A stretch of DNA of 63,992 bases, filler included, from Reclinomonas americana ATCC 50394 (GCA_048213135.1; 14 parts of 14 records of this genome joined end to end with filler, not necessarily neighbours in it), one strand, 5' to 3'. Shown: positions 2,956-46,800, counted from the first letter of the whole stretch. The notes: a model not told the origin generated them from the sequence alone. Made by a program: numbers and translations.

Positions 2956-5385
2956 GTGGACCCGGCTGCTCGTCTCTTCTGGGCATCATGGAGGTGAGAC
3001 TCCCTCCTTCTTCCTACCTCCCTCCCTACCTCCCTCCCTCCTTCATCCCTTCTTCCGCCATTCTTCTCTCCCTCACCTTCGCTTGTTACACTTCCTTCGC
3101 ACCCTCCGTTTCCAGTCACTCACTCACACACGTTCGTGCAGGAGAACGGCCCGTTCTATCCGAACGCCGACGGCAATCTCGTGGAGAATACGATGAGCTG
3201 GAACCGCCTTGCCAATGTGCTGTATGTCGAGGTCAGTGCGACGACAACGAAAAAAAATGCACATGGTGTGGTTCCGTGTCTCACAGTCGGTGCAGAGCCC
3301 GGCCGGTGTCGGCTTCTCGTACTCGGAGACCCCGAGCGACTATTACACCACCGATGAGCGCACCTCCAGTGACACGGTGGTGTTTTTGCGCAAGGCATGG
3401 TTTCCCCTCCATTGCTGGCCTGTTGATCATGTGTCTCACTGTCATCTCCCTCTGTCTCTCTCCCTCTGTGTGTGTGTGTGGTTGTGTGTATGTGCGTGTA
3501 TGTCTCTGTCTTTGCCTCTGTCTCTGTGCGTCTGTCTGTCTGTCTCTCTCGTGCAGTTTTTCGAGCGGTATCCGCAGTTCAAGAACAACTCGCTGTATCT
3601 GGCCGGCGAGTCGTACACTGGTCACTACCTGGTGGAGGACGTGTACCAGATTTTGCAGTACAATGCAGATGCCACCAAGGTGTGTCTGCTCGCACGCGCA
3701 TCGACGCTCGATTGGGAAGGGGGAAAGCTTATNNNNNNNNNNNNNNNNNNNNNNNNNNNNNNNNNNNNNNNNNNNNTTAATTAATTAANNNNNNNNNNNN
3801 NNNNNNNNNNNNNNNNNNNNNNNNNNNNNNNNGATTCATGAGTCAGTATGTGCTTGCGAAAGGAGCGCATTCTCTCTGTCGTTCTCTCCCGCACTCTCTC
3901 TGTGTGTCACTCTCCCTCCTTTCCTTTCTCTCTCCTCATCTCTCTTCCCGCTCTCTGCTGTCCCTCTCTCCTTTCCTCTCTCCCTCTCTCACTCTCTTAT
4001 CTCTCCTTCCCCTCGTTCCTCTCTCCCTCTCTCTCTCTCTTTCCCTCTCCTCTCTCCTTTCCTCTCCCCTCTCTTATCTCTTTCAATCTCTCCTCCCTCC
4101 TTTCCCTCTCCTCCTCCCTCTCCCCCTCCCCCTCCCCCTTTTTCCCTCCCTCCCTTGCCCCCGTTCCCTTTCCCTCTCTCCTCTTACACCGCGCTCCCCC
4201 AGCCGCAAATCAACCTGCACGGCCTCATGAACGGCAACCCCTTCACGGACACCGACATTGACGACCTGGCCTTCTACACCGTCTTTACCGAGTTTGGCCT
4301 GCTCTCCAACACCACGCTGGCTGGCGTCATCGATCTGTGCTACCCGACGGGCGAGAAGGAGCAGACGCCGACGTGCCAGGTGCAGTACCAGAAAGCCATC
4401 CAGGAGATGGGCCCCATCAACATTTACGAGCTGTTTGAGGACATTTGCGTGGACAGCGTTGCGTTCATCCCTCGTTTCCACCGATATGCTTTTGTGCTTC
4501 TTACCTTCAGCCTTCACCTCTGCAGCCGCAAACGGTGCGCCTGCTGAAAATGGCCGCTCAAGCCCGACCACACTCGCTGCAAGCGGCCATGGCACGAGAG
4601 CTGGAGGCGCGGCGGCAGCGGCGAAAGACCCGCGGCTCCGGCTACGACGAGACCAACAATGGCGACCCGATTCCACCGTGCATTAGCGAGCACACGATTC
4701 CCTATCTCAATCGACCCGACGTGCAGGTGCGTGACCTCCTCACCCTTTGTGCTTGCCACACTCATCATCACGTGTTGTACAACGCAGGCCGCCTTGCACA
4801 TTGGCCGCCGCACGAGCAACCTCCCCGTGCAGTGGCTCGAGTGCACCGAGGACGACGTGCTGCACTACAGCCGCGAGTCGTACCTGCGCAGCATGCTGCC
4901 AACATACGAGGCCATTTTCAAGATGGCACCGCAGCTGTTGCGCCACCCTCCTCCTCCTCCTCTGTAAGCTGCCACTCCACTCACCACGCACGCAGTCGCA
5001 TCCTCATCTTCTCCGGCGATGTCGACGGCGTGGTTCCCTTGTTGCGTTGCTCGTCTTCGCGTCACCACTCACCCTCATCGCACGTATTCACGATCCGCAC
5101 GCGTGCAGCTCGGGCACTCGCGAGTGGGTTCGCCGACTGAACATGCAGGAGCTGGCGCCGATGCGTCCGTGGATCGTCAATCGCCAAGTGGCAGGGTGCG
5201 TTTTGTCTCCAGTGCTCCCTATCGTTTTGCATTTCTGCCGACTCATCTCTGCCTGCAGTCGCGTCACCGTGTACGACCGTATGACCGTGGCCACCGTACG
5301 CAACGCTGGACACATGGCACCGGCCTCGCAGCCCGTCCGCACCCGCGCACTGATTGAGCGCTTCCTCAACAAGGCCGACATCTAA
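2956..5385 (+). CDS. Serine carboxypeptidase, peptidase family S10 (5' exons missing; spans a gap)
   Basis: Spliced motifs [45 protein letters not shown] (catalytic Ser), GNPFTD, YLNRPDVQAALH, RILIFSGDVDGVVPF (Asp) and TVRNAGHMAP (His). Confidence 0.95.
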
Positions 5386-5437
5386 GAAAAATGAAAATCC
5401 AAATCCCTTTTTGTGCTCACCAAACAACACACGAAGG

Positions 5438-5999
5438 ATGGCGAGAGGGGAACGCAGACCACTCATTACAGTGGTGTTGTTGATAGTGATGATGGCGACA
5501 ATGGGTAGCAGCGAGCCACGGTGTGCGCGCACTTACTGCAGAGTCTGTGCTCTCACAGAGTCTCACTCTCTCTGCGCACGCCCACAGAGACGAGCTGAAG
5601 TGCACTAACGCTGTCGAGTGCGTCCCGTGCGAGCCCAGTGAACTCGTTGCGTCTTCTTCTCTCTCTCTCACACACTCTCTCACTCTCACGCCACTCATCG
5701 ACATGCAGCGCGTGTCGCCGTGTGTGGAGAACGGCTTCAAGTTGCAACAAGAGTGCCGCAGCAGTGACAGCGACAGTGTGACCACAGAGTGGATCCCGTG
5801 CGCGTTTGTGCCTCACAAGACACCATCGACAAGTGCATTTGTGGTGTTTGAGGTGCGTTGTGCTTTTGCCTCTCAGTGTTGTCATCTTTTCGCTATGCCA
5901 ACGTGTTGCAAGGTGTGCATGTTGCTTGCGTTTGCACTGAGCGGCTTTTGCGTGTGGCGACGCACGAGGCCAGTGCGATTGGAGAGACGATCGGTGTGA
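5438..5999 (+). CDS. JTB: JTB-like small single-pass membrane protein
   Basis: Signal peptide, six-Cys ectodomain (C..ECVPC..PCVENGF..EC..PC), then FVVFE plus a TM helix and basic tail, matching the JTB family layout. Three introns. Confidence 0.65.
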
Positions 6000-6606
6000 G
6001 CCACGTGTAATACCAGACAACAACAGCGGCCAAAAGCCGTAGCTACGTAGGGATGGACGCGAGCGGGCGAAAGTCATCCCTGCAGAGTGGCGTGCTTCTA
6101 CTCGGTGGTGAGCTCGCTAAAAGGTCCAGCCTTGATCATGAGCTCCAGGATCGGATCAAAACGATGCGCACTTGAGAGAAGCTTGCCGGTGAATGCCCAG
6201 TGAATGTATCACAGTTAATGGCGAGACTTGCAGCACATTGTTGTCGCATGGAGGGCGAGGTGAGACAAGCAGATGAACTTGCATTTCCCGCGCGCGCGGG
6301 TGTCTTTGAGCGCGTGCCGGAAAAACATTCCCGACAAACGCGTGTTGCACTCTCCACCCATGACTACTAGAGCGGCTCCGACAAGCAAGCGTGCGTGGCA
6401 CAGCGCACGAGAAGAGGAAACCACGCGCCAAGTGAAAAAAGCGCGCGAAAGTTTTCGCGGGCATTTTTTCATTGTCTCTTTCGGGTTTGTGCGCGCTCCG
6501 TGTTGCCATTCTTCCTCCGCCATCAACTCACTTGCACGCGCGCTCTCTCTCTCGCTTGCTGCTGCACTCTCTTGCCACGCACACACACACACAGAAGAAG
6601 AAAAGG

Positions 6607-9268
6607 ATGCGTTTCACACGCGTTTGCCTGCTGTTGGTCTTGCTGTTGACTGTGGCGTTTGCCGTCATGGAGGCGCGCGCCACTCTCGAGGCCCGCCTTG
6701 TCATCTCTGGCAAGGAGCTCACACTCACATGGCCGTCGGGCGTGTCACTCGAGCAGGCTGGTTTGTGAAGAGAGAGAGACAAGAGAGAGGGTTTGCTCTC
6801 GGTGTGACATTGCACACTTACAAACACGCACGCACGCACACAGCGATCAACTTTGCGCAGCAGCACAACCTGGATGCGGCACTGGTGCCGCAGATCATGC
6901 AAGTCGTCGAGAAGCTGCTCGCCGAGAACAAGGTTTGTGCGATGGTTGATGTTGTTGTTGTTGTTGTTGTCTGACTGACTCTGTGCGTTTTGTGTTGTTG
7001 TGTAGCCCGACGAGGAGCTTGGCGCGGTGATTGCCGACGAGGACCTGCTTGTGCCGGTGGCTGTCAACGGCAAGGCCGAGCAGATGCCGGTGATTGTGGG
7101 CGAGACGGTGCTGGAGGCCTCGTCGCGCTTTGCCACGCAGCGCAACTTGGGTGTCGCCGCGGTGCGCTCGCTGGTGGCTATTGTCGGCCCGCAGGTCACT
7201 GCCTTCAATGAGAAGCAGCAGGCGCAGATCAGCTTGCGCAAGTCGAGCTCGTTCTCCACTCGCGGCAGCGATGACTTTGAGGATCCGGAGGTAATGTGCG
7301 AGCGCGAAAAGAACAAACAAGCTGAAAAAAACCAACTTGCATGTGTGCGCAGGCCAATGAGGAGCTGAGCAGCCTGCCGGGCAGCACCGTGGTGGTGCCG
7401 TCCGATGCGACTGTCACCATCACCATTGACGAGCACGGCCCGAGCACTGTGAAGCTGAGCAGCGGCGAGACTGTTCTCAACGCCGTCAAGCGCCTCTTCT
7501 ACACCCCGCAGANNNNNNNNNNNNNNNNNNNNNNNNNNNNNNNNNNNNNNNNNNNNTTAATTAATTAANNNNNNNNNNNNNNNNNNNNNNNNNNNNNNNN
7601 NNNNNNNNNNNNCTGCAGCGCGTTGGCGCGTTGAGAGTCTCCTCCATGGCAACTAAAAATGCTGTCTCGTGTCGTGCAGTCCGTCCCGGCCCCGACCGCC
7701 GTCGACGGCATCTACTCGCTGACCACCGAGAATGTGCTGGCCACCGAGACCGGTGTCTGGCTGGTTGTGTTCAACCACTCGAACCCCACGTGCGCGGTAC
7801 GTCTCGTGCTCCTTCTTTTCTTCCTCGTCCGCGTTGTGCCTCACACATCCGTCCAATTATGAACGCAGTTCTGCGCCGAAGTCAGCAGCTACATGCGCGA
7901 CCTGCAGAAGGCGCTGCCGAAGGGCGTCAAGCTCGCCCAGGTCTCGTGCAACACCGAGGCCGAGATCAAGACCTGCCGCCGCTACATGGTCAACCAGTTC
8001 CCCACCTTCAAGTGGTGCGTTGCTCTCGCCACAAGTTAAATCTATTGTTTGTCGCACCTCATCGTGCTTGTGCGTGCACAGGCGCGTGGAGAACGCCGAT
8101 GCCACCACGGTGCTGAACAACTCTCGCGACTGGAACGCGAACAAGACCTACCTGTTGGGCTGGTTGAAGAAGCAGATTCCGTTGCGTCGAAAAATGCAGA
8201 ATCGAGGGAGAGAGTGAGAGTGATACTCACCTCGTCCCTTGCCAATCGCAGGGTTGTCCGCACAATGACCCCGACCGAGGTGCAGTCGTACGACGTGTGG
8301 AAGGACGGCGTGTTGGTCGCCTTCCGCGGCACCTCGGACCACGCTGCCACTGCTTTCGATGCCGCCGATCCGTCGCCCGAGTTGGTGAGCTATGTTGTTG
8401 TGTCGGGTGGCGCAGCTTGCCCCCCTCTAACGCAATGCTGCAGACCACCTTCGTCAACATGAGCACTGGCATGACTCGCCGCACCTTCGCCATGGTGCCG
8501 AGCTTTGACACGTGGACCAAGCAGTACCCCCTGCCGGCCGGCTGCTCCAACGCTCTGGCGGCCGTCGTTCGCGTCGACGGTGTGTCGTACTTCTGCGGCG
8601 GCGGTAACGGCGACCGCGTCGCCCTGCGCTCCTTTGTGCAGAGCCAGGCCGTGATGCGCGTTGCGTCATTGCAGTCGCTGTCGGATCAGTGAACAGGTAG
8701 CTCACCACTGTGTGCTGTTGCAGATTGGCCGCCTGAACTCGGCCAGCCTTGCGCTGCTGAAGCTCGCCGGTCGCAGTTTCGTCGCTGAACAGTTGCTGCT
8801 TTGTGGCTCTATACCTGCTCTCACTCGCTCTTCCTCTCTTGCCACAGACCGCATGTTCGGCATTGTGATTCCCAAGAGCATGGAGAAGGATCTGGCATCG
8901 TGAGTTTTTCTCGTCTTGTGTTTTGTCCCTGCTGCTCGAAGTTCTCATTATCTGCGCAGCGTGACGGGCGCCGTGAGCGCGGCTGTCCACCTCGACAACG
9001 AGGCTGCGTTCTTCTACGCCGTCTTTGAGGACACCAAGACGGTGAGAGCGCTGTTTCACGCCACCGTTATGTGCACGCACTCACTCACTCTTTCCCTTCT
9101 TGTGGCACACAGTGGCTGCAGCAGCACAACGTCGACGAGAAGAAGCTGCCGGCATACTTTGTGATGACCCGCACTGCGGCATCGGCCCAGGCCGTCGGCG
9201 CTACCTCGATCAACGCCGGCTCGTTCGAGCAGTTTGTCAAGTCGCAGCTGCAGCAGCAGAACGCATAA
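6607..9268 (+). CDS. Secreted protein disulfide isomerase/thioredoxin-like protein with N-terminal repeated small modules (spans a gap)
   Basis: Signal peptide MRFTRVCLLLVLLL. Thioredoxin domain YSLTTEN..VWLVVFNHSNPTCA|FC (CxxC split by an intron), VKLAQVSCN, CRRYMVNQFPTFKW, followed by degenerate b-type domains. About 12 introns. Confidence 0.75.
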
Positions 9269-9506
9269 GGATCGAAAGAAGAAGAAGCTCATATGTGTGA
9301 GCGTGAGCGTGCATGTACAAGCCGCCGCCATTGCCTTTTCTCCCTGTTGTTTTTCTCTCTGTATGTGCTCGACCAAGTAAAAAACGAGCACGCCAAACAA
9401 ACACGAACACGCCAATTCAATCCTTCACATGAGCGAAGGTCTTTACCCCCCTCCTCTCTCTCTTCTCTCACTCACTGCCTCCACACGCAACTAAAACACA
9501 CACACA

Positions 9507-11330
9507 ATGCACAGCACGTCGACCCCCGCCACCCACCAGCAGCACAGTTACGCACGATTATTTCTCCGACACACAGACTCTCTCTCTCTCACTCACACAC
9601 ACACATGCACAGGCTGTGCCAGCAGTGCCCCGCGCACCTCCACCACCACGCGCACCTCCACCAACCGCCTCCTCGCCAGTAGCGGCCTCAGACAGTGCGC
9701 AGACAAAGACACACACACACTCTCTCTCATTCTCTCTCACTCTCTCTCACACACGCACAGGCGCTCTATCAGCAGCAGCAAGTGCTCCGCGTCCTCCTCC
9801 TCCTCCGCCCTCCTCCTCCTCCTCGTCCACTGGTTTGTCTCACTGCATTTCCACAATTTGATTACAATGATGATGAGAGTGCGACGAGTGACCGGTGTCT
9901 CTGTGCAACTCACCTTTACAGAGAGCACCCGCTCGCCTCCGCCTTCCGCTGCGCCTCCGCCACCTCCGCCTGTGTCGCGTCCACCTGCTGGTCTGTGAGA
10001 AGAGAGCTCATTGAGAGAGTGAGAGAGAGACTTGACTGAGTGTCTATGGTGTGCGCAGTGCAGAGTGTGGCCGGTGGCTTGACGTACCCTGCGCCTCCGC
10101 CTCTTGCTGCTGGCAGTTGCGTGAGACTCACACTCTCGGAGAGTGTCAGTTGGGCCTGATGCTCGTTCGCAGAGGCGGCGACCACTGCAGCTGGCGGCGA
10201 TTCCTTGCCTCGACCTCCGCCTCGGCGATCGGAAACGGTCTCCATTGTTGTGCTCTGTGTGCTGTCTCGTGACTGTGGAGTCTCACTAGGAAGGTAGGCG
10301 GGCGAGGGCAGCGACAAAGCGGGAGCGTTGCGCTCGGAGTTGTCGTCGGTGCGCGCGGATGCCGAGTGTCTGCGGCGAGACAATGATGCACTGCAGCAGG
10401 TTGGTGTCGATGATTGTGTGTGTTTTTTGCGACGACGTGGAGCAGGCGGTAACATGCGCATGTATGTGCAGGAGTTGTCGGTGCTGCGAGTGCAGGTCAG
10501 TTCGGTGGAGGCGATGAAGCCGCGCTTGGCGGCGCTGCAGGCCGACAATGATAGGTTGCAGGAGGTCAGTCGCAGCCTGTTGTCGCGTTGCACGTGCTTT
10601 TGCTTGTGTTGTTGATCGCGAGGTGATGCACAGGAATTGGCGACGTTGCGCAGTCGCGCCTCGGCGGTTAACCCGTCGCAAGCGGCCGCGCAGAAGCAGC
10701 TGGAGGCTGAGATTGTCGATCTGCGCGCGGTTCGTGATGATCGTCGTGATGTTATGTCTGAGCATGTTCCGCACGCTGACCACGTGCGATGCAGGAACTG
10801 GCAAAGACACGCGCTGCGGCGACGGCCTCTGCTGACGCATCAGCGCGCCTGCGTCAGGCCGACGAGAAGCTGATGCAGACGCAGCGGGTGAGTGTGTGTC
10901 TTCATAATGTGCCCATTGCAACTGCTACTCATCGCATTGTTCCACGGGCACAGGAGATTGCTGACCTCCGCGCAGTTGTCGAGGCGACACGCAAGGAGGC
11001 AACGGTTGGTGCATGTGGTGAGCGTGCTGAAGGCAATCCTGCTCTCTGACTCTGTGTGTGCAGGATGCCAAGACAGCGCTGGCGCGCGCCACGCAACAAG
11101 TGGCCGAGTTGTCTGCGGTATGTTGGTATCATGTCCGCAAGAAGACAGGCAGCTATTGTAACACGTGACAATAGGTGGCGGAAAAGTCCAAGTCAGCAGC
11201 GGCGGGTGCCACACAAGCGGCTTCGGTTCGTCTCCTTCGCTTCAACCCTCACAGACAACAACATCTCACTCTCTTCTTTTTCGTGCAAACGCAGGGCGAA
11301 TTGCAGCAAGCACGCCAAGGTGCGCTATTC
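9507..11330 (+). CDS. Multi-exon Pro-rich and coiled-coil hypothetical protein (boundaries approximate; runs into a gap)
   Basis: Series of short exons with heptad-like content (LRSELSSVRADAECLRRDNDALQQ, ELATLRSRAS..QKQLEAEIVDLRA, EIADLRAVVEATRKE) bounded by GT-AG. Confidence 0.55.
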
Positions 11331-11602
11331 ATTCTCCCCTTCTGTCGCCGCTTCACCAAATTCACGCTTATGGCTTTGTGTANNNNNNNNNNNNNNNNNN
11401 NNNNNNNNNNNNNNNNNNNNNNNNNNTTAATTAATTAANNNNNNNNNNNNNNNNNNNNNNNNNNNNNNNNNNNNNNNNNNNNCCGCCCCACGCAAATGAT
11501 TGGTTGCGCGAAAACGGTCGTTTAAGTTCTTACGGCAATTTGAGAGAGAAGAAGAAGGGAACTGAGTGTGCATAAACTGCAGGAGCGTTTGCGTGAAAGA
11601 AC

Positions 11603-13837
11603 ATGGGCTGCACTCCGAGTGTTGCGAATCGTTGCGCATGCCAGTGCCAGTGATGTGCGAGGCCACTGAAAGAGAAAAGAGACTTAACATTTGTGGTCTG
11701 ATCGTACAGGATCCGGCACAGTGATCAGTGTCGCCGGTCAACGACCTGTGCCCGCGCCTGTGCAGCTGGAGAAGCAGGCGAGCATGCTTGGTCCCAAGTC
11801 GCCCTACGCGGCCGCAGAGAGTTGCGTGTGTGTGAGAGAGACAAGGAGAGAGAGTGGCACGCGCCTGACGTTGTTGTCATTGCGCAGACTCGAGCTCCAA
11901 GGACCCGGACTATCGCGATGGTCAGATGCCTGGTGAGTGAAGACGGAGTAGGAGGAGCTGGAGGTGTGTATGCTGAACGCAGTGTGTGTGTGTGTGTGAC
12001 AGAGCCAGTGTGCCTTCCCGTGGAGACGGGCTTCAAGTCACCAGTGAAGGGTCGATCGGCGTCATGGCGATCGTTGCGGTCGCCGACGACGGGCAGCAGT
12101 CGTCGCGGAAGCGCAGTACAGGAGACTGCGCCAGTGGCAGCTGACAATGCAAAGGCGACGGAGGAGAACGAGGAAGTTGTCATGGGCGACAGCATGCAAG
12201 AGGTGGTGGAGGCACCGGTGCGACAGGTGTCGGCGGATATGGATGCCCCGCTGGAGTCGCCGATTGCGGCCACACCACCGCCGGTGAGCACCACCCGGGA
12301 GCGCGCTCCGTCGATTCGTGCGACGCCAGTGGAGAGTGGCGACAATGCGGCCATGCTGCAGCCACCATTGTCGCCGCCAAAGCGCGAGGCTTCGCTGTCG
12401 GCGTCGCCGGCACGACGGCAGTCTGTGTCACCGCGGTTGCCGCTGGTGGAGGTACCGCAGGAGCTAGACATGGCGGAGTTGCATCAGGTGCAACAGGAGC
12501 CGTCGGCTAACTTTGTGGTGGGAGCTCCGTGCCCGGACGCGATGGTGGAGGACGGTCGCCGCGAGAGCCACCCGTGGGTGCAGGAGTCGCCGATTAATGT
12601 GCAGCCGGTGTCGGCGTGGGGCGGCGATGCGGCAGAGGTGCCGGAGTCGCACGACGCCGTGCATGCGCATGAGGAGCCGCCGGTAAAGGTCGAGTCGGTG
12701 GGCGACGAAGAGGAGGAGCAGGTGGTGGAGGCGGCAGAGGTGGTGGAGGAGCCGGAGAATATGGCAGCAGAGGAGGCGGTTTCCGAGGCACCGATGGCCA
12801 TCGAGTCACATGCTGCGGCATCGGCGGCAGCTGAGCCGGTGGAAGAAGCTGCTGCGCCGGCTCCAGTGGTGGAGCCAGTAGTGGAGGAGGCACATGGAGG
12901 CGAGGAACCAGAACAGCTCGCTGCCGCACCAGTTGAGGAGGAGCCACAGGCGTCTGCCCCAGCAGTGGAGGAGGAGACGCACGCTGCCGCACCAGTAGTG
13001 GAGGAGCCCCCTGCCGTACCTGCTGAGGAGGAGACGCACGCTGCCGCACCAGTAGTCGAGGAGCCCCCTGCCGTACGTGCTGAGGAGGAGATGCACGCCA
13101 TCGCACCTGCTGAGGAAGAGCAGCACGCTGCGGCACCAGTAATGGAGGAGCAGCCTGCTGTTGCACCAGCTGAGGAGGAACATCCTTCTGCTCCTGCTGA
13201 GGAGGAGCCGCTCGTTTCTGAGTCAGCAGCCGAGGAGGAGGCGCACACTGCCGCGCCTGCTGAGGAGCCGCTGCCATCTGCACCAGCAGTGGAGGAGCAG
13301 CATATTGTTGCACCAGCTGAGGAGGAGCAGCAACCTTCTGCGCCTGTCGAGGAGGCGGAGCAACTTGCTGCCTCTTCAGCACCACTTGAGGAGCAACCAT
13401 CAGCACCAGCCGAGGAGGAGGAGCCCGCCGCTGCACCAGTGGAAGAGGAGCCGGCGGGAGAGGAGGAGTCGGACGACGAGGTGGAGAAGCCGACTTCCGC
13501 ATGGGAGGAAATGGTCGTCAACTGCGATCGCCGCGATTACTCGACGCCCGAGGACCCCGAGATCCACTTTTCAGTGTTCCGCAACTCGACCGACGCCGGC
13601 AACTGGCGCGCGTTGTGTGAGCTTCGATTCACGCCGGCTCGGCTCAACAAGGCTCGCTGGACGCTGATTGTCGAGGGGAAGAACACGTGGCCTGAGTCTT
13701 ACGACAAGGAACGCGTGCTGGCGGTCATGGAGGAGGTGGTGGCAGCGTACCCGCCGACCACAGTGTTCGGGTCGCATTCGCAGGACCTGCTCAAGGAGCA
13801 ACGGCAGAAGCTGGCTGCCGGGTTTTCGCTTTGCTGA
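11603..13837 (+). CDS. Predicted myristoylated/palmitoylated acidic repeat protein with a small globular C-terminal domain
   Basis: Starts MGCTPS. Introns 11631-11709, 11821-11887 and about 11934-12002 keep the frame into a 1.8-kb exon containing EEExxAxAP repeats. Ends AAGFSLC*. Confidence 0.75.
12830..13455 (+). repeat. Coding tandem repeat of about 10-aa units EEE(P/Q/T)xAxAP(V/A), including a near-perfect 57-bp duplication at 12968 and 13025
   Basis: EEETHAAAPVVEEPPAVPA followed by EEETHAAAPVVEEPPAVRA. Confidence 0.9.
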
Positions 13838-18842: not shown

Positions 18843-20682
18843 ATGCTCTCTCCCGCACGCCGACCACGTGTTCTGCTCATCACCATCTGCACGCTGACTC
18901 TCCTCGTCACTGCGTACCTCTCACTGCGTCGTGGCACACCGATCGACGACCCGGCAGTGTCGAGCGATGGCGATCGCGATGTGGAGGCAGAGCTGCAAGA
19001 GTGGCGCGAGTTGCAAGAGGTCAGTCAGTGCACAGCAACAATACAGCATAGTGAAGGGTGCACTCTGATACGCTCTCTCTCTCTCGCACACAGGCGGCCG
19101 CGCGATTGGGACCAGTGGGAGGCGGTCAATGTCGCAATCACGTGCTGGCCGCTCGATTGCCGTCGTCGGTGGCCGACTGGATCGAGAAGGCCGTTCGCAA
19201 CCCGTTCATGTTGAGTGCCTTTCTCTGCGTCTCTCCCTCCACGTAGACACTGATCGCCACACTCACTCGCACACACAGACATCGCCTGCTGAACGACCTC
19301 GCCTCGCCCAAGCTGTGCCAGACGCCGGCCATGGTGGCGCTGCGAGATCGACTCATGTCGCAGCAGTGCATGCGCCTGTCCAGTTGCGGCTCTTGCCCTC
19401 TCCTCTTCTTCTTCCCCGCTTCCTCACTCGCTTGCGCAGGTCAGCAGTCGACCTTTTGGCAAATCTATCACAAGCCGGAGACGTGGTCGTCGTTGTACCA
19501 GTTTGCGTGGACGGGTGGCATCAGTGTGACGCCAGGCGAGCTGGCGCGCTACTGCGACATTAACATTTCCGATTTCACGACGGCGTTTGTCAGCGATCCA
19601 CCGCGACGCGGTCAGCACGCGCAGCTGCAGTTTGCGGAGCAGGCCGCCATCATTCCCATGGGTATGGGCGCGTACTGCTTGCCCCTCCCCGACTGGTACG
19701 GGTTCGGCACGTGGTGAGTGGCTCCGCGATGCGCTCTCTGTGAGTTGACGGGAGCTAATCATCGTTGTCACAGGCAGCAAGACAAGAAGATGAGACCGCC
19801 GTGCAAGATCATGTCGGAGTACCCGATTGAGAGTGCGCTTCCTCCTCCTATTCTCCGTTTCCCATCCTCCTCCTCCTCCACTGCCACTCACCACTGCGCG
19901 TGTGCAGAGTTGCCACTGAACACCGTGGTGGCGTGGGTGCGTGTCTCTGCCTTCCTTGCCCTTGACTTGCCCTTCAACGTCTCACTGCTTCCTGCAGAAC
20001 GATTTCTTGAGCTACAGCTACGGCAGCCTGCTGATTCAGGCCGAGGAGGCGCACGGCAAGATCCTGAAGAACACACTGGAGACGGTGATGCAGGAAGTGT
20101 TTGGCACTGAGCAGCCGATTCCGGCCGAGATCCAGTGCGGCGATTACCGCTGCATTCCGTGCTGTGCGCACATGTACATGCACAAGCACACACTCCAGTT
20201 ACGATCCGCCACCCCTCTCTGCTTCGCAACACAAGCGCTGGCCTCACCTGGCAGTGCGCACACACACAGACTCTTCGCCAAGTTTCAGCTGGCGTTCTTT
20301 GCGTACGCTTTCGGCACGGGGCAGTACCTCGGAGGCTGCTCGTACCTGGAGAAAGGCATGACGTTTGGGCGGTGCTTTGCGTATGTGTCGGAGCGACTGG
20401 CTTCCATCTTTTACTTTATGCAAGAGCGCAAGGTGAGTGCGATGACTGTGGCACGACGTGGTCTGACTTGGCGAACTGACGAACAGTGGAGCACAGATGC
20501 TGCTGTGGAGAATTCCGCGTGATGGCGAGTGCCCCGACCCGGTGCACGTCGAGACCGAGCAGTACTACAAGCAGCAACCGGCGCTGACCAATGAGCAAAT
20601 TTTGCGCGTGTTCGATGTTCTGGTCGAGTGCAACAAGCTGGCGACACGCGACCTGGAGCAGCCGCCACCATCACCACCATAG
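18843..20682 (+). CDS. Type II membrane putative glycosyltransferase, DUF4422/GT111-like
   Basis: N-terminal TM anchor. Motifs WQIYHK, FAEQAAI, DWYGFGTW|R and RCFAYVSERLASIF resemble DUF4422 (YxGxxxYRR, RxxGxLSERL). About nine introns. Confidence 0.5.
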
Positions 20683-23809: not shown

Positions 23810-26625
23810 ATGGGGAGACCGCGATGGAGGGCCTCCACCTTCCTCCCTTTCCTCCTCCTCCTCCTCCTCCTCCTTCTCCTCACCTCTAGCTGCCTGGCGG
23901 CCCGCCCACCTGCCTTGCACCCCTTTGCCTCCACACCAGCCACCATCCGCCTCGAACCATTCCTCCGAGTCGGCGTGCGCTCCGTGCCTCTCGTGTCGCC
24001 CTCGGGAGGTGCTGCACAGTGGCGAGTGCAGCGCGACAGCGATGCACAGACACCAAGCTCAGTGTTGTCACTCAGCTCGCATGAGGCGCTTGGCGAGGCA
24101 GGTTTGTGTGTGTGTGTGCATGAAAATCACACGTGCATGCAGACTGATATGGTTGGGTCGCAGTCGAGGCCTTTGTGCGCGATCATGGAGGCCCAGTGGA
24201 GCAGCTGCTGAGTGACGTGTCGACCTACATTGAGGTGCACGCCTGTACTCTCCTCACATCACGCTTGATAATGCCGCTCATCCCATCCTCTCCCTTGTCA
24301 TTCAGCGACAACGCATTATACGTGTTGGTTGTGGTCACTTGCTCGGCGACTCGATGCTGTTTGCCAGTGATGCACCGCGCCCACTGTTTGCTCCTGGCGA
24401 CACGTCTCTGGTCGGGCTTGTCGGTGCACAGGGCACCAGCGCCGTGCTGCCGCTCACCGACGATGTCCACTCGCTGCGAGATGCTGGTGAGGTGATGTGT
24501 GCACTCGTTGCGCCTCTTCGTCTCTCACGTGCATTGTCAGTGACCATGGCGTTCGGCGGCCAGTCCGCCGCCTCGATCAACATGCAGCTGGCTCACACGT
24601 GGCGCTCCATTGTCGCGGTGCGTCGTTCTGTGTGCATGCACAAGCCTGTGATTTTCTGATGTTTCTTCTGTGCTCACAGACCGATGGCGCCATGCCGCTG
24701 CTGCGAGACATTTACTGCGACATTCACCTATACATTAGTGCTGTTGCGTGGAAACGAAACGTGTCACTTTCTCCCGCTACTGGTGCACGCTGACCCCGTC
24801 GTCCGACAGCGACCGCCTGGCTGGTGGAAACGACCATCACCGTCATCTGCTGTCGACGCCAGCCTCATCCCGCTGCCGTACGACGTCGATTCGCGAGCGC
24901 CCTTTGCCGAGTGGGCCCATGGCCATCGCTTGTCCGCACAGGCGCTCACCGGACCGCAGCGGAATAACATGTGGTGCCTCTCCGCCGCCATGCATGGTGC
25001 GTGTGTCTCCGTGTCCTCCTCTGATCTCTCTCGCTCTCTCTGAAGCAGCACGCACACCAGAGGCCATTGACTGCACGCACATCGGGCACGGCTTTGTGGC
25101 GCGGAGTGCATTGATGCCGCAGTCGCCGCTTCCCACAACAGACAAGAATGCGCCTCTCGGCACGGTGGATCCGGCGCAGCGGCAAGTTGGACTGCACTCG
25201 GCCGACTTTTGCCGCGACGTGGAACAGCACTTGTGGCACATGATGACGGATCCAACGGCACTGGCCGAGGCGCACACTGCGGTGGGCCGCCCGCACGCGC
25301 CGCAGCCGCTGGCCTTGTTTCCTGCCGGTTCCGCCTTTCGCGAAAATGCATCCACGCTACAGCGCCTCGCTCACCATCTGGCCTTGCATCCGTTCCACCT
25401 CTCGGTCGGCAACGACGACACAGACGACCGCCTCGTGGTGTTCACGGTGCTGGTGCTGGACGGCGACAGTCGTTCCGATTGGCTGCTGATGCTTGACAAT
25501 TGGCTGACACACTTTTGGCATTACCACGGATCGGAGGTGTTGCCGCTGATCGTGTGCGAGACGGAGACGACATATGCACTCGTGCAGCAGCTTCTAGAGT
25601 CTGCTGCAGGGCGACCACAGTCGGTGGCCGCCGCCTTTTTGGATGACTTCGGCTGGTTTGTGGCCGTCGGCGCTGCAAGCTGTCATTTTATGGCATTCCT
25701 CTGAACACCGTCTCATCTGTGCAGGCAACGCGACAAGGGCGGCCTTCCGTTTGGCTTCCCGGGCGCCTCCATCAACCTCAAATGGCTGTACACGTACCTG
25801 TTGCTCCGGTGCGGATATCGGCCGCTGCACATGGACGTCGATGCGCTCTTTGTCAGCCACGCTGCACACCTCACGCAGCTGAGCGACGTCGACGATGGCC
25901 TTGCGCCCGACATTCTCCTGCAGTACGACTACATGCGTTTGGAGACCGATGTGCAACCGTTGCTGCGCACGCCGTCGACGCAGCGTCGATTAGAGCCGTG
26001 GTTGTTTGCCTCGGATTCCGCCGTGCTGCCGGCGCCCTGGGTTGCGCATGCGTTCTTCACTGCCTCTCTGACATGTCGTTCTCCTTTCTCTCTCACCTAC
26101 TCTTCTCTCGTCTCTGTCTCTTCTCGTGCCGTCGCTGCACAGGTGACCATGACATGCGCCGAGCACCGCCGATACCTGCCCGTCAACGTTGGCGTGTTCA
26201 CCATTCGCCCAACCGTGTTCTCGCTGCGTCTGGTGGCGCACCTCGTGGCGCTCTTGGACGCACACTGGACGGAGCACAACGAGCAAATGCTGCTGCAGCT
26301 GCTCATCGACTACCACACTCGCCTCGGCCGCCTGCTCTTCGACTGGTTCGATCTGTGGCAAGTGAACAGCGCGCACGGTCTCATTATGCTGCGCGCCGCC
26401 CACGATCCCGACGGCCGCAGCGCTCGCGGCTACGAAGCCGGCTCACCAGCCGTGGTTGCGTGACGCAAGCATTCGTCGCCACTACCTGTACTCCCCTTCG
26501 TTGCTCACACTGCTTTTGTTGTGCAGCTGCACATCACCGCCACCGGCATGCCCAAGATACCGCGCATGCACGAGTTCGGATTGTGGCGAGCCGATGCACA
26601 AAGGATCCAGAAGATCGTCGAGTGA
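23810..26625 (+). CDS. Nucleotide-diphospho-sugar transferase (GT77/PF03407-like), paralog 1, with long N-terminal extension
   Basis: Signal peptide. Motifs MLDNWLTHF, LKWLYTYLLLRCGYRPLHMDVD (DxD), VNVGVFTIRPT, EQMLLQ and LH..KIPRMHEFGLW. Confidence 0.8.
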
Positions 26626-26802: not shown

Positions 26803-28536
26803 ATGCAGCCACGCAACGATAGATTCCGCCCCATCTTCATGGTGGCCTACTTCAGCCTCATCACCACCACGCTCTTCATACTATACAGAGTCGTTGCGTC
26901 TTGCACACTCACACACTCTCTCACGCACACACTCACTCACTCGCTCATCGCAGTCAAACATGGGCGACGAGAACGTCTCCTTCACCATGCTCTCTCCCTG
27001 GTCGTGGTGGCAGTACGGTCGCGAGTTTGCCGAGCAGTCAGACTCGCTCGATCATCTCGCAGATTGCAAGCTGGTGTGCGCTGATGCACCTCCACGAGGT
27101 ACACGCTCTTTGAGGCACACACACATGTACACACAGAGTCACTTACACTCTCTGTCGTGTGGCAGGCAAGCTTCCACCCAAGTGCGACTGCACGCGGATC
27201 GCTGCGGACTTTGTCGATCGAGGGCGACGGATGCTGCCTCCTCCGCGCCCGCAGATCGACAGTGAGCCTCTGTGGGCGTTCGAGCCGGGCTTCCTGCCTG
27301 CAGATGTGTGCAAGGAGACCGAGAGGTTTCTGTGGACAGCGCTCACCTCGCCTGTGGCGTTGCGCGAGGTCGAGGCGGCAGTCGGCAACCCCGAAGCACC
27401 GCAACCCGTGTCACTCTTCGCCACCAGCAAGTATCGCGAGTCGTACGTGGCACTGGCGCACTTGGCGGAGCGGCTGAAGACGGGTCAGCATTCGTTGAAC
27501 GATGATGGGCTGGTGGTGTTCACGACTGTCACGCTGCGGTCGACCACCGATGTGGAAAAGGCCAAGGGCTGGACCGACATGCTGCGCAACTGGCTCTTCC
27601 ACTTTCGCAAGCTGCACGGCGACGAGAAGAAGCCGCTTGTCATTTGCTCCGACCTGGGAACCTACAATGCGGTGCTGGAGATCACCGGCAACGATCGCAC
27701 CATCCCGCTGCTCGAGGAGACGCAGTGGTGAGTGTCTAGTCGCGTTCACTCCCTCCATCGATTGCGCACTCACTGTGGCGATATCGCCTCGCGCGCGCAG
27801 GCACATTGGCAAGGGTCCGGTTGGCGGCGAGCGAAAGCTGGACGTGTCGCTCAACATCAAGTGGATGTACGCGTACCTGATGGTGCGTTGCGGGTACCAG
27901 CCGCTGTATGTGGACACGGACGTCATCCTGCTGCGCGACCTGCGCACGGTGCCGGAAGTGCTGCTCGGGTTGCCGCAGGCGCGGCCCATTGACTTTCTCG
28001 GGCAGGCCGACTGCTTCGACGACTGCGATCCGGTGCCGACCGTCGAGGCCGAGGCAGCGTATCGCGTCGCCACTCCGTACACTCTCATGCCGCAGCCGTG
28101 CACCGGTGAAGGATATCCGAACTGTCGCGAGAACCAGCGTCGATTCTGCATCAACGGCGGCACATGGACCGCCCGTCCGACGGTGTACTCGCTGCGCTTG
28201 TTCGCTCACATGATCGACGTGCTCGAGTCGCGCTGGGACTGGTTCGAGCAAGACCTGGTGAACTTCCTCATGGACTACCACACCCGTCTCGGCCGTCTGC
28301 GCTTCGACTGGCTCGATCTGACCCGCGTGAACCACCAAGTCGGCTACAACAACCTCACCAAGCGCCGCGTGGCCTCCAACGATCGCGTGACTGTTGCGTC
28401 GCGCACTTTGCTTGTAATTGCTCCATCGCCGCCCACACTCATGGTCTTCCTGCAGCTGCACGTCATGGGCGTGTGGTACGACAAGATCAAGCTGATGAAG
28501 GACATGGGCTACTGGTTCGAGACCGACGAGCCATAA
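26803..28536 (+). CDS. Nucleotide-diphospho-sugar transferase (GT77/PF03407-like), paralog 2, type II membrane protein
   Basis: TM anchor. Motifs MLRNWLFHF, IKWMYAYLMVRCGYQPLYVDTDVILLRD, INGGTWTARPT, EQDLVN and LHVMG..KIKLMKDMGYW. Shares DYHTRLGRLxFDWxDL with paralog 1. Confidence 0.88.
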
Positions 28537-30213: not shown

Positions 30214-30383
30214 CTACAAGAACAGGAGGTGAGTTTCACCATCCGAGTAGGAACCAGCGAGGGGGGTGGGGCCGCAACTCCTNNNNNNNNNNNNNNNNNN
30301 NNNNNNNNNNNNNNNNNNNNNNNNNNTTAATTAATTAANNNNNNNNNNNNNNNNNNNNNNNNNNNNNNNNNNNNNNNNNNNNG

Positions 30384-30460
30384 ACGACTGGGCCGACATT
30401 CCCACCTTTGAGCAGTCAATGGCCAGTGGCCGTCAGTCGGTGAGTCGCGCCTTCGAGTTG

Positions 30461-30497
<37 letters not shown>

Positions 30498-32094
30498 CCG
30501 CAACTGACCATTTCTTTTCTCTTATTTTCGTGTCGCGCACACAGCACATGGGCGAGGCGCGTTTGAGCCTGAAGGTGCTGACGTTGGCGACGCACCAGAT
30601 CGAGATTCTGTTTGTGCTCTGCAACCTGATTGGTGGCCGGAGGAAACTGGACGTGCAGCAGCGCGCCGCCTCGCTCGGCCTCATCCCCATTCTGGCCAAA
30701 ACGTTTGCAGGCATGGAGTGGGATCCGCGCAAGGAGCACCAGCCGACCGACCCGCCGCACGGTCCCGGCTGCGACTGCAACCCGGAGAGCGCGCTAAAGG
30801 TGCAGATGTTGCGTCTCATTCACGCCTACTGCGACCGCGACATGGACGGACGCGACAACAAGATGCTCCTGCTGACACCCTCTGAGCTGGCGTCCGTGGG
30901 CAGTTGCGTGCACCGCGCACTCTCTTCACGGCACGTGCGTGTGTTTGTGTGCTCACTCAAAGAAATCCTCGTGCAGTCCAACGCCGCTTTGCCCCGTACA
31001 CACAATGCAGCGGCAAAACCGGCCTGATTCGGATGCTCATTGACGAGCTCATCCGCCAGCCCAAGGACTCCAACTATCGCTTCTGGATGGCGTCGTGTGT
31101 GGAGGCGTACTTGCGTGGCGCTAGCATGGAGGAGAAGGTGTTTGTGTGCCGCACGCCGCTGCTCCAGGTCTGTTTGCACTCTGTTTCCCCCGCCCTTCCC
31201 CTCCCTTCCCCCCTCGCTCACTCTCGCTGTCTTCCGCAGTTCCTGCTGTCGGACGTGATCAGTGACGGCCTCAACTGCCCCGGCAGTCTGCAGACCAGCT
31301 TTGATTTGCTGGGCGAGCTGTGCAAGTTCAACCCGGTCGGTCTGCGCCTGCTGAACGAAATGCTGAGTGAGGACGACATGGCGCGGCTGCGAGGCGTTGT
31401 GCTCGGCAACCTGGTGGACAGCAATGTGTTCCTCCGCGGCTGCCTGCTCACGCTCGAATCGCTGCGCGACATGCGGCCGTCGTCGGACTACCCGTTCGAT
31501 GTGTGCAAGTTTGAGCGGTTCTTTGACGTCGAGTCGCCGATGATCCTCAAGAGCCTGATGACGATTGTGACGCCAGAAGAGATCACTCAAGAGAGTTGCG
31601 TGCACCCTTGTGCCTCCGTGCGTGTCTCTTGCTTATGTTGCTCATTTCCCCCTCCGTGTGCAGACATTTGCTGTCTCAACACGGCCCTGGTGATCATCTT
31701 CCGGCTGCACTCGCACGGCGCACTGGAGTCCGTCCTGCGCAGCATCCGCGTCTACGAGCAACGGCACCGCGTGGAGGTTCTCGGCAACTTCCGCAAGCTG
31801 CTCTTCTTCTGGAAAGAGTACTACTTTTACCGCGGCCGCGACAAGCTCTCGCTGGAGCTCGGCAGCGGCCTGCCGTTCACACGCTGGCCGCGCATGGTCG
31901 ACAAGCTCATTGCCGAGGGCGGTCGCTTCTCACTGACCGGCGCACCACCACCAACGCCCTCCGCGGGCGCCACCATGCAAATGTTCCAAATGCTGCCCGG
32001 CTCACCCGCAATGGCCGCCGCAGCCGCCGCCTCTGCCGCCTCGGGAAGCAGCAGCAGAAGATCGCGAGAACTGTTTTCCAAGTTCACTCCATGA
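30384..32094 (+). CDS. TRPC4AP: TRPC4AP/TRUSS (DUF3689) homolog, 3' part
   Basis: HGPGCDCNPESALKVQMLRLIHAYCD, RFWMASCVEAYLRG, LQTSFDLLGELCKFN, NLVDSNVFLR, TQENICCLNTAL and NFRKLLFFWKEYY. Confidence 0.9.
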
Positions 32095-43720: not shown

Positions 43721-43865
43721 AGTGGAAAGCAGTGAGAGAGAGTGTGCCTGACGGAATGAGGAACACAGATAGAGTGATTAAGAAACGAGTTGACTGAGAA
43801 AAAGACGCACTCTTTCGAAACTCTGTCTGTTTGCTCACTCTCTTTCCCTTTTCTCTATCCCTCAG

Positions 43866-46800
43866 GTGGATCTCGACTACAGTATGACGGACGACTCGGT
43901 GCCGGATGAGAAGATGGAGGTGTTTTCCGATTACCGCCGCAGTCTGCCGGTCAATACGCGGGAACGCATTCGAGCGATTCGCGCGTGGGAGACTCCTTCG
44001 CATGGGAAACGACAGCTGGCGCCACCGGTGAGTGGGGGAAGGAGAGAGAGAGAGGGAGATTGTGTGTGTGTGTGGTGAGATGTGCGATATCGCGAACTGG
44101 ACATATTGCTTGTGTTGCGCTCTGTGTGCTGGGAGATACCACAGCGACAGGAGGCTTCTCCCTTCACCACCCTCTCTCACTCCCTTCCTTCTCCTATCCA
44201 TCCTTTCTGACCTTCATTCTCTCCTTGCCTTCCCTGGTTCACCCCCGATGTTACCTTCTGATCTGTGTTCCACTTCCTCGTTCCACTACCTCTTGACAAA
44301 GTCGCTTTGGTAGGGGTTTCCTTTCGCCCTATGCCCTTCCACTCCCTTCTCCACTCTCCACTCTCCACTCTTCTTCCCTTTGCCTTCCACCCCTTCCCCC
44401 TTCCACCCCTTCCCCCTTCCACCCCTTCCCCCTTCCACCCCTTCCCCCTTCCACCCCTTCCCCCGTCCACTCACTTCCCCCTTCCACCCCTTCCCGCTTA
44501 CAGGAGAGGAGATCCCGCTCGCTCTCACCCGACAAGATGCGCGCCAAGCGCGCTGGTATGGGCGCACTACCACGCAACGGCCCGCTCGCCGAGGCACCAG
44601 GTCGTGCGGCGAGGAATCTGATGCACAATGGCGGCGGAGGCGGCGGCGGCGGCGGCGGCAGCAGGGCCAAGGCACCGTGGAACCCGCGCATTGTGGACAC
44701 GCCATTGGCCAACCGACGAGCACGGACAGCGGCAATGCCGACTGCGGCGGCCTCGGTGTCGTTCCCGCAGGCAATGCCAGAGCCGGAATCCATCTCGGAC
44801 TTGGAATCTCGCCTGTACCGCAAGCTGTACGGTGTACCACATCCCATGGAGGCCGCGCGGAGGGCCCGAGCATCGGCACCCGCCAGCGACTCACCGACCA
44901 AGAGGTTTGTGGTGTTGAACTTGTGTTGCCTCTCTGGGGAGAATGCTGACTGTTGTGATCAGAGCAAGCAGCCGCAGTCCCGACCGTGCGCCAAACCGGA
45001 GTCCATCACCCTCGCAGCGCTCGTCACCAAAGATGGTCGCCGCGCAGAGGAGAGGGTGAGTCGTGCTCTCCCACTGTTCTTTTTCCTGCTGTTTTGCTCA
45101 CTGTTTTTGTTCGATTGTGCAGGAGCCTCCCGAACGGCGTGCGCCGCACCGCATCACCAGTGGCGGCGAACTCGCTGACGCAGCTGAGCACCGACCGGCA
45201 ACTCGAGTCCATGCGGAATCAGCTCAAGAAGCTCTCGAATGGTTCGTTTCTGTGAAGGGGAAGAAGCAGATGTGCTCTTGGCAGTACCATACCATCTGGG
45301 AGAGAAGCTTGATCGAGAGAACCTTCTCTCTATTTCCTCCTCCATGTTGAAGAGAAGCGTTCGTATATCTCTCTCTTCTGCATTGCTCCATTCTCTCTCT
45401 TTCTCCAACTTCTCTCTCTCCTCCCGTTTCTCTCTCTGTTTCTTCTGTGCCTTGTGCAGCGTTGCGTGTGCTTTCTCTCTCATCTCTCCCTCCCCAAGGC
45501 TCCACACTCAGTCCATTCTGTCCTTCCCTTGTGTGCCATCTGCAGCACTTTGTGCGCTTTCTCTCGTCTCTTCTTCTCCCAAGTGGAAGAGAGGCTCAAA
45601 ACTCAGTCCTTTTGTGTGCTCCCTGGATGGCCTTATGTTCATTTCCTCTCATCTATTTTTTCCCCACTTTGAAGGGAAGAACGAAACTGAAATTCATCTC
45701 TTTCCTTCCTCTTCCTTGCTTCTTCTCTTCTTCCTCCCTGTTGAAGAGAAGCATGTCTATATCTCTCCCTCCTGTGCATTGCATCCTTTTCCTCAGTCTC
45801 CCTCCCTCTCCCCCTTTTCTCTCTCCCTTTCTCCCCCCTCCTTGCCTTGTGTAACCCTTCTCCTTCTCCCCCACAGGCGTCGAATCCGAGAAGCGACAGC
45901 TGTACAACCTGCGCACCCGCATTGCCGACTCACCACCTCGTCGGAGCATGTCACCGCAGCGTGATGGCGCCGAACCAGCAGCCCCCGCTGATGGTTTGCA
46001 CACAAGCCATTCACCCAACTCGTGAAAGACATGCTCATTGTCCTCCACAGATGGTCTGGTGGAGCAACTGGTGGAAAACATGGGCAAGCGCACCGCCGCC
46101 AAGGAGCAAGAGATTGAGGTGCGGCTCGCTTTCCCTCCAATCTCTTTGCGCATGCCCCACTCACTTCACTCTCTCTCTCTTTTCCTCCACAACAGGGCCT
46201 GAAGGAGCGCCTGGACCGCCTCGGCTCGGAGGTGTCGAAAAAGAAGGAGTTGGAGCATGCGATTGCGAAAAAGGACCACACGCTCAAGTCGTACCAGTAT
46301 CAGTTGCACGAGCTCGAATCACAAAAGGACTCGCTGCAGTCGCAAGTGCGCAGTCTGCGCTCCGAACTCAAGGACTACTCGGTGGAGATCCCGTCCAACT
46401 ACAAGCAGGAGCTGGCGCAACTCCAGCGGCAAGTTCTCGACTTGCAGCGACAGTTGGCGCAGACGCAGCAAAAGGTGGCCGAGGTGGAGACGCTGCGGCA
46501 GGCCAAGTCGGATGCAGATCGTCGGTTGCGCGAGTTGCGCATGGAACTCGACCGAGCGCAGGCACAAAAGACCAAGACCAACTCACAATTCGTTGCGTCG
46601 CACTTTGGAAGCGCGTCACCTGTGCGTGTGTGTGTGGCTTTCTGACTCTGGGTGAATCACAGCAACGAGACAAGAGCAAGCTCGAGGCGCAACTGGCACG
46701 ATCACAGGAGGAACTCGTCAGCAACGAGCAAAAGATGAAGATGTTGATGGACGAGCTGGCCAGAGTACGCGTCTCGTTGCGTACTCTACTCCCTCCTTTG

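Follow-up and report, generated by a model that had tools for sequence, protein, structure and literature searches.

The 63,992-base window analysed here, i.e., the whole stretch of Reclinomonas americana ATCC 50394 DNA (GCA_048213135.1) available to us, contains two kinds of 5′ splice site. The ordinary donor has the consensus G/GTGCGT (the slash marks the exon-intron boundary), and an abundant second donor, mostly GTTGCGT, carries the same consensus one base further into the intron. We refer to donors with G at +5 as class A, to those with T at +3 and G at +6 but no G at +5 as class B, and to the rest as other. Our preferred reading, to which we give a probability of roughly 0.58 from the sequence evidence, is that class B introns are major-spliceosome (U2-type, GT-AG) introns whose donor would be recognised by U1 small nuclear RNA (snRNA) in a shifted register and cut at the first GU. 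The window is a eukaryotic, intron-rich region of 52–60% G+C with 26 masked blocks of 44 N. All frequencies, logos and counts below come from this single 64-kb stretch, a scope that itself weighs against the reading.

GTTGCGT as an intron start

A first-pass annotation of the window had proposed the second class from 22 sites said to carry GTTGCGT or a variant, 19 of them after an exon base other than G. The heptamer is indeed found at 22/22 of these positions, the G-preceded ones are 26041, 26455, and 39616, and each site has a CTNAY-like branch and a CAG within 57–102 nt downstream. The two strands together hold 28 copies of GTTGCGT, whereas 100 shuffles that preserve dinucleotide composition average 12.01 (standard deviation 3.57) and never attain that count. 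The insertion is specific for T: the window holds 28 copies of GTTGCGT, 16 of GTGGCGT, 15 of GTCGCGT, and 2 of GTAGCGT.

The link between this motif and introns was assessed free of reading frame by asking how often a 3′ (branch plus acceptor) score of at least 11 is reached 45–130 nt downstream. The acceptor, branch, and length matrices used were trained on 58 seed introns, for whose selection GT was the sole donor criterion; an earlier regular expression for branch plus AG was too permissive (background 32%), and the matrices took its place. Such a 3′ signal follows 16/28 copies of GTTGCGT, compared with 8.9% of 3000 random GT dinucleotides and 2/28 copies of the reverse complement. Other bases in the inserted position score 0/2 (GTAGCGT), 3/15 (GTCGCGT), and 2/16 (GTGGCGT), and replacing the initial G abolishes the signal ([ACT]TTGCGT, 0/28). 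For the ordinary donor strings the figures are 21/106 (GTGCGT), 15/88 (GTGAGT), and 11/27 (GGTGCGT), and among the 27 motifs tested GTTGCGT is the strongest intron predictor. A GC-AG or GA variant of class B was also considered and rejected, since GCTGCGT (0/22) and GATGCGT (0/6) are never intron-like and GU is thus required.

Frequency of the classes in donor-agnostic gene models

To count the classes, we used a Viterbi gene model built from codon log-odds, GT..AG ends, the 3′ matrices, and a fixed intron penalty, with no donor information. At a penalty of -13 (the strict model), 68 and 60 introns were called on the two real strands versus 3 and 7 on the reversed sequences. Keeping the better strand at each locus left 119 introns, of which 81 form a confident set (3′ score at least 9, length 45–130 nt). 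The confident set divides into 43 class A, 18 class B, and 20 other introns, and the full set into 60, 20, and 39, so class B accounts for 22% (18/81) and 17% (20/119), respectively. When the 20 other donors were re-examined, four could be reset in frame to class A (GTG/GTGAGT type) and one, 38616, to class B (38607), which leaves about 15; after the two homology corrections the confident set holds about 46 class A, 20 class B, and 15 other introns. The first-pass annotation had put class B at roughly one intron in six. Its abundance is borne out, and the figure is, if anything, low (17–25% of the window's predicted introns).

The 18 confident class B introns comprise 14 sites from the earlier list and four new ones (8776, 9547, 20198, and 24743). 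The strict model contains 15/22 listed sites, the fifteenth being 26041, which lies under the 3′ cut-off of the confident set. A cruder first model recovered 12/22, and a model with a lenient intron penalty (-9, retrained) recovered 18/22; the lenient model over-predicts (405 introns, with cross-strand gene fusions) and was kept solely as a recovery check. Class B introns are spread over at least 10 genes and both strands. Some multi-intron genes have none, for instance GatB and the galactosyltransferase at 58895–60629; the galactosyltransferase-domain gene at 58898–59950 (minus strand) has five introns, all of class A or other and none of class B.

The other donors deserve a separate remark. 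About 15 confident introns have neither G at +5 nor the class B pattern, and 11 of them keep G at -1; their positions include 28818 on the plus strand and 14818, 22076, 33420, 34185, 35655, and 39391 on the minus strand. Among their donors are GTACAC (twice), GTGATT, GTCCAC, GTAAAG, GTAACGT, and GTGACGC, and the last two, with G at -1, a base other than T at +3, and G at +6, would suit a true bulge register. At 8012, 19711, and 27725 (plus strand) the donors are in tandem (GTG/GTGAGT or GTG/GTGCGT) and the model took the upstream GT; the consensus donor is the in-frame GT 3 bases downstream, and these may be 3-nt alternative donors.

A discrete class with its own exon-base pattern

Class B is a discrete class and not the tail of a single donor matrix. 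Of the 81 confident donors, 18 show the class B pattern where 4.5 would be expected if positions were independent (p=4e-7), and 12 rather than 0.62 begin with GTTGCG. Among donors lacking G at +5, G at +6 is found in 18/20 with T at +3, and in 2/6, 0/3, and 5/9 with A, C, and G there. The position-independent donor model that the first-pass annotation had named as a possible refutation therefore fails within this window, where its claim of an abundant second donor class holds.

The exon side of the junction differs as well. It had been claimed that ordinary donors mostly follow G and class B donors mostly do not, and in the confident set G stands at -1 in 33/43 introns of class A and in 1/18 of class B (Fisher p=2e-7). 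In the curated list of 26 class B sites and candidates the -1 base is A in 9, C in 9, T in 5, and G in 3 (p=2e-7 against class A). Inside the intron, class B moved by one base follows the class A consensus, and does so more tightly than class A itself. The G at class A +3 (28/43) corresponds to class B +4 (21/26), the C at +4 (19/43) to +5 (25/26; p=6e-6), and the T at +6 (30/43) to +7 (20/26). Written out, x/GTTGCGT and xG/GTGCGT differ by one base. Compared in the shifted register with the class A consensus, which serves here as a proxy for U1 and not as the U1 sequence, x/GTTGCGT matches at 6/7 positions; in the normal register it lacks the -1G, +5G, and +6T. The loss of -1G thus agrees, in this window, with the earlier suggestion that +1G takes over the role of -1G.

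Placement of the junctions by protein homology

Protein-to-DNA spliced alignment, constrained by GT..AG alone and a fixed intron penalty, placed six class B junctions without a gap at the first GT (4937, 5041, 31595, 38607, 39616, and 39979). Three conserved frames had been cited in support of a cut at this GT. For VVPF-SGTR in the carboxypeptidase the support is complete, with 5041 chosen by every homolog and gapless across the FSGDxDxxxP-xGT block. The TRPC4AP frame (TQEN-ICCLNT) likewise stands, 31595 being gapless in the two displayed alignments (P0016 and P0021); the donor with its 69-nt intron was returned with 3/12 homologs, plus one more with a different acceptor. The BBS1 frame LPRH-ANL stands in part: 39204 was the donor chosen, but the alignment to P0001 has a one-residue length difference in a variable stretch. 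Against P0001 as a whole, nine introns were found in BBS1, including the listed donors 39979, 39616, 39204, and 38607, three of them gapless. At 38607 and 39616, homology prefers the listed GT over the strict model's in-frame choice.

On this sequence evidence, class B introns taken as a whole are very probably genuine and cut at the first GT. Our confidence is lower for 5646, 10116, 11631, 11821, and 26041 individually. A second GT at +6 was rejected as the general donor, as only 3/26 sites (10116, 11821, and 38607) have one that could itself be a class A donor, and of these 38607 is settled for the first GT by homology; the second GT reads GTGAGA at 10116 and GTGTGT at 11821, each a possible alternative donor.

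Two metagenome scans for relatives were made, the first returning none and the second one distant TRPC4AP relative (contig L001, 1–9663). This contig has 39% G+C and GTAAGT-type donors, is intronless at the NICCLNTA position, and is uninformative on class B; the intron with its class B donor is therefore not common to that relative.

The rest of the intron

Beyond the donor, the two classes are alike. They share the CTNAY branch and CAG acceptor, with a median 3′ score of 13.6 for class B and 12.8 for class A and a median length of 69 and 66 nt, respectively. Across the 26 class B sites the length ranges from 57 to 102 nt, and the 3′ (branch plus acceptor plus length) score is at least 9.9 at 25/26. 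Membership of the U2-type GT-AG introns is consistent with the GT and AG ends and with the gapless conserved frame that removal restores at six sites.

U12-type introns were considered and set aside. The sole RTATCCTT match in the window (28109–28116, minus strand; 0.54 expected by chance) is antisense to a coding exon, and none lies at a class B site. A search of the window against Rfam gave 0 matches at gathering thresholds and, at E<=1, only two sub-threshold, chance-like matches (mir-3149 and Hsp83 3′ UTR), neither of them an snRNA. An introner family was sought by comparing the 26 introns with one another in BLASTN after trimming the first 7 nt of each, which returned only 14–36 nt matches of CT/CA low complexity. 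Many intron bodies (e.g., 5646–5708, 9547–9612, and 26893–26953) are rich in CTCAC, CTCTC, and CACAC runs, and these produce both several overlapping CTNAY copies and the sole similarity between introns.

A shifted-register model and the points against it

In the reading we favour, a 5′ splice site of the form GU-U-NCG-U, mostly GUUGCGU, would first be recognised one base downstream of the actual junction, with U1 snRNA pairing one nucleotide downstream of its normal register. Intron G+1 would occupy the slot where exon G-1 normally pairs, the sole mismatch would be U+2, facing the usual partner of G+1, and U+3, G+4, C+5, G+6, and U+7 would stand in for +2 to +6. After the departure of U1, the cut would be placed by U5, U6, and the catalytic core at the sole GU on offer, which lies one base upstream of the junction as seen by U1. 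U6 would then need to pair with G+6/U+7 across one extra nucleotide, and the cut would fall six nucleotides upstream of that pair, a register absent from the passages of the cited papers used here. We infer all RNA-RNA pairing in this scheme. A shifted register would account for the fixed T+3, the lost -1G, and the tighter core, the last being expected if other pairs compensate for the mismatch.

Several observations count against this reading. The canonical U1 5′ end should favour A at +4. The base at the shifted +4 position is C in 25/26 class B sites, not the A that a textbook U1 would select, so that either U1 differs here or another factor reads GCG; the near-invariant C hints at the variant U1 raised in the first-pass annotation, one that would pair best with GUGCGU. 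G at -1 (3/26) is not significantly rarer than a local G frequency of 0.27 would predict (p=0.12), which means that a preference has been lost and that avoidance is not proven. Protein homology does not tell a GT...AG cut from one slid by a base (TT...AGN), and here the GT-AG rule decides. The seed set behind the 3′ matrices itself included class B introns, a circularity to be kept in mind with the 3′ scores.

At the level of single sites, the strict model missed 7/22 listed donors (5646, 10116, 11631, 11821, 28393, 38607, and 39616), taking another in-frame GT at the last three (28387, 38616, and 39601, respectively); the first five have no frame or homology support apart from one weak homolog at 28393. 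The donor at 4458 was chosen with 5/10 homologs, in a variable insert and with four different acceptors, and that at 30903 with 4/12, in a poorly conserved stretch. The weakest of the set is 26041, with a 3′ score of 5.6; a paralog-guided alignment confirmed its intron end at 26142 and picked 26023 as the donor.

Alternative explanations

The alternative that survives best, which we consider unlikely, is a dedicated reader, i.e., a second U1 variant, another snRNA, or a protein that matches GUUGCGU contiguously in the way that U11 serves U12-type introns. A class that is discrete and tight (C+5 in 25/26, G+4 in 21/26, T+3 by definition), with a C where canonical U1 would not choose one, would suit such a reader. 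The share of class B also far exceeds the roughly 1.5% that non-canonical registers make up among human sites in the parts of PMC4856993 and PMC11162779 drawn on here, to which all later statements about these two papers are limited. Nevertheless, branch, acceptor, and length are those of class A, and the window shows nothing of a second machinery and no U12-type signature beyond the one chance-level antisense RTATCCTT match. A single reader is also the simpler explanation for a donor that matches the class A consensus after a shift of one base.

U1 might instead sit in its normal register, pairing with G+1 and one U while the other U (+2 or +3) is bulged and GCGU serves as +3 to +6. Among the validated human registers is one with a single nucleotide bulged at +3 (or +2) (PMC4856993), such sites "look like one nucleotide was inserted between +2 and +5" (PMC11162779), and a bulged U+2 with U+3 paired would also account for the fixed T+3. 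The exon base is what makes this improbable. A bulge keeps the pairing at -1, so G should be at least as frequent there as in ordinary donors, and it is seen in 1/18 (3/26 curated) against 33/43. For this reason, we rank the bulge below the shifted register.

Annotation artefact, whether through a cut at another GT (at +6 or an in-frame neighbour), sites that are not introns, or a compositional quirk, appears very unlikely. It would fit the strict model's preference for in-frame GTs at 28387, 38616, and 39601, the 3/26 sites whose second GT at +6 has G at its own +5, and the contested donor of 26041. Six junctions are nonetheless fixed at the first GT by homology, two of them against the model's own choice, the motif is more frequent than in shuffled sequence (28 versus 12.0), its 3′-signal link is strand-specific (16/28 versus 2/28), and G shows no excess at +10 (6/26). 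Introner families occur in several protist lineages, but common descent from an introner or transposon-derived family bearing GTTGCGT at its end is hardly credible here, given intron bodies that share only CT/CA low complexity at lengths of 57–102 nt and the same-position introns 26455 and 28393, which lie in old paralogs and are otherwise unrelated in sequence.

Sites and gene content of the window

Genes were identified with a Pfam run over exon-sized open frames, and all class B sites and candidates are listed together with the genes in Table 1. The closest relatives of TRPC4AP that bear names are stramenopile proteins at 36–47% identity, and the closest relative of BBS1 is a transcriptome protein at 48% identity. 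From 48000 to 58000 the window has low-complexity open frames, strong GC and AT skew, and few confident introns.

The tandem glycosyltransferase-like paralogs (24081–26625 and 26803–28533) have common blocks such as DYHTRLGRL.FDW and a same-position intron before LH[IV]; in both, this intron (26455 and 28393) begins with GTTGCGT. The intron at 28393 is 63 nt long, in frame, and stop-free, and the strict model reads through it; it was removed with 1/8 homologs (P0137, a distant homolog; weak support), and another homolog picked 28414. When a glycosyltransferase-like exon was searched against 1.84 billion representative proteins, only 12 short or distant homologs were retrieved, and these did not settle the donors of 26041 or 26455. 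The candidate at 5646 lies outside any confirmed coding sequence and is possibly an intron of an untranslated region. The coding context of 9547 is weak because its flanking exons are of low complexity.

Table 1. Class B introns and candidates (first 26 rows), followed by genes identified in the window; scores are 3′ scores.
Position	Strand	Donor	Base at -1	Gene or context	Support
4458..4525	+	GTTGCGT	C	serine carboxypeptidase	model-chosen; 11.8
4937..4995	+	GTTGCGC	T	carboxypeptidase, phase 2	10/10 homologs; model-chosen; 13.4
5041..5108	+	GTTGCGT	T	carboxypeptidase, VVPF/SGTR	10/10 homologs, gapless; 14.9
5646..5708	+	GTTGCGT	C	candidate	lenient model only, without homology; 14.0
8181..8251	+	GTTGCGT	C	thioredoxin-like gene	model-chosen; 13.1
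8660..8723	+	GTTGCGT	C	thioredoxin-like gene	model-chosen; 13.8
8776..8847	+	GTTTCGT	A	new	model-chosen; 14.8
9547..9612	+	GTTACGC	A	candidate, new	model-chosen; 15.9
10116..10172	+	GTTGCGT	A	candidate	chosen by no model run; 13.0
11631..11709	+	GTTGCGC	C	candidate	lenient model only; 13.0
11821..11887	+	GTTGCGT	A	candidate	lenient model only; 11.7
19210..19278	+	GTTGAGT	T		model-chosen (first and strict); 14.9
19383..19439	+	GTTGCGG	A		model-chosen (first and strict); 14.2
20198..20269	+	GTTACGA	A	new	model-chosen (first and strict); 13.2
24743..24809	+	GTTGCGT	T	new	model-chosen; 9.9
26041..26142	+	GTTGCGC	G	candidate	model-chosen; 5.6
26455..26526	+	GTTGCGT	G	paralog 1, just before LHI	model-chosen; 14.3
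26893..26953	+	GTTGCGT	C	paralog 2	model-chosen; 12.7
28393..28455	+	GTTGCGT	T	paralog 2, just before LHV	11.9
30903..30976	+	GTTGCGT	A	TRPC4AP/DUF3689	model-chosen; 15.4
31595..31663	+	GTTGCGT	A	TRPC4AP, EEITQE/NICCLNTAL	homology; 15.7
46592..46662	+	GTTGCGT	C	coiled-coil gene	model-chosen (first and strict); 11.6
38541..38607	-	GTTGCGT	C	BBS1, TPVLH/IPALLPSL	gapless against P0001; strict model took 38616
39132..39204	-	GTTTCGT	C	BBS1, LPRH/ANL	spliced alignment and model
39536..39616	-	GTTGCGT	G	BBS1, YSIR/GTKQF	gapless against P0001; strict model took 39601
39911..39979	-	GTTTCGT	A	BBS1, RVIET/IQLPAVP	gapless against P0001; model-chosen
about 2700–5385	+			serine carboxypeptidase	Pfam
24081–26625	+			glycosyltransferase-like tandem paralog 1, nucleotide-diphospho-sugar-transferase-like	
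26803–28533	+			glycosyltransferase-like tandem paralog 2, nucleotide-diphospho-sugar-transferase-like	Pfam Nucleotid_trans
30335–32091	+			TRPC4AP/DUF3689	Pfam
38370–40642	-			BBS1	Pfam
50072–51868	-			DAO (FAD oxidoreductase) domain in a long intronless open frame	Pfam
58898–59950 and 61565–62653	-			two neighbouring galactosyltransferase-domain genes	Pfam
				MTP18, RuvB-like/TIP49, Got1, GatB, PIG-H	Pfam

Comparison with known systems

At some human sites, U1 pairing is displaced from the canonical register by one nucleotide in the downstream direction, with U5 and U6 later setting the cut (PMC11162779, PMC4856993). Both papers credit the shifted-register human 5′ splice sites to Roca and Krainer 2009, and PMC4856993 credits the bulge +2/+3 register to Roca et al. 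2012 and puts the validated non-canonical registers at about 1.5% of 201,541 human sites. Class B resembles the human shifted-register sites in having the consensus moved one base into the intron, U at +3, and the cut at GU. The differences lie in abundance (17–25% of the window's predicted introns, against about 1.5% for the human sites with bulges and other registers included) and in the fact that the human register rests on validated pairing, whereas ours is proposed from donor sequences. The core also differs, being GCGU in class B and A-rich in human shifted-register donors. With the bulge +2/+3 sites, class B has in common what looks like a one-nucleotide insertion directly after GU; unlike them, it has not kept the exon -1 pairing (G in 1/18 against 33/43 in class A).

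As regards the cut itself, U1 defines the site roughly, and the distance from the cut to the +5G:U6 pair downstream of it is normally five nucleotides, a distance of four having been reported once (PMC11162779). In the STAT3 exon 21 downstream donor described there, the U6-pairing intronic G/U lies one base off +5/+6, as it would in class B. The STAT3 offset is upstream (+4/+5, 4 nt) and concerns one site, whereas the class B offset would be downstream (+6/+7, 6 nt) and concern a whole class. We would like to note that the part given to U6 in class B is something we purely infer.

U12-type introns offer a different comparison, for they too form a second discrete class with a tight 5′ consensus in the same genes as ordinary introns; class B lacks their RTATCCTT and their branch site and uses the class A branch and acceptor instead. 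The tunicate Fritillaria borealis is similar in that donors deviate from the standard consensus across an entire lineage, and the authors of that work raise altered U1/U6 properties and a possible shifted register (PMC13326754). There the GT/AG rule is dropped in most introns, whereas in this window GT-AG is kept and the register of the extended donor has moved. In the full-text literature searched, the coverage of which is incomplete, we came across no lineage described as rich in GTT-type donors; absence is thus not proven. Judged from the sequence, what appears to be new is thus a one-base-offset donor as a mainstream class; the type of mechanism, a shifted register, is already known.

What the offset donors would mean

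Going a step further, we tentatively suggest that the spliceosome of this lineage may routinely, in about a quarter of introns, place the cut one base 5′ of the U1-defined junction and six rather than five nucleotides upstream of the G paired with the U6 ACAGA box. This would be enabled by a U1 5′ end co-evolved for GUGCGU, with a predicted G opposite +4 in place of the pseudouridine of other eukaryotes, and by a helix between U6 and the 5′ splice site that accommodates a bulge. We regard this extension as possible but doubtful.

Gene finders with a single donor matrix will mis-annotate genomes of this kind, a warning we draw from the donor-agnostic model having misplaced two homology-verified class B donors (38607 and 39616). 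How the cut position is fixed once U1 has found the donor is still debated from a few human minigenes, and flexibility of U6 pairing by ±1 has so far been reported for a single donor in the sections of PMC11162779 consulted. If a fifth or more of the introns in this organism are in fact offset by one base, they would form a large natural data set on the choice of cut site and would lead one to expect definite changes in U1, possibly also in U6, U1C, LUC7, or PRP8. The separate roles of U1 in finding the site and of U5 and U6 in setting the cut would then be readable from thousands of native introns.

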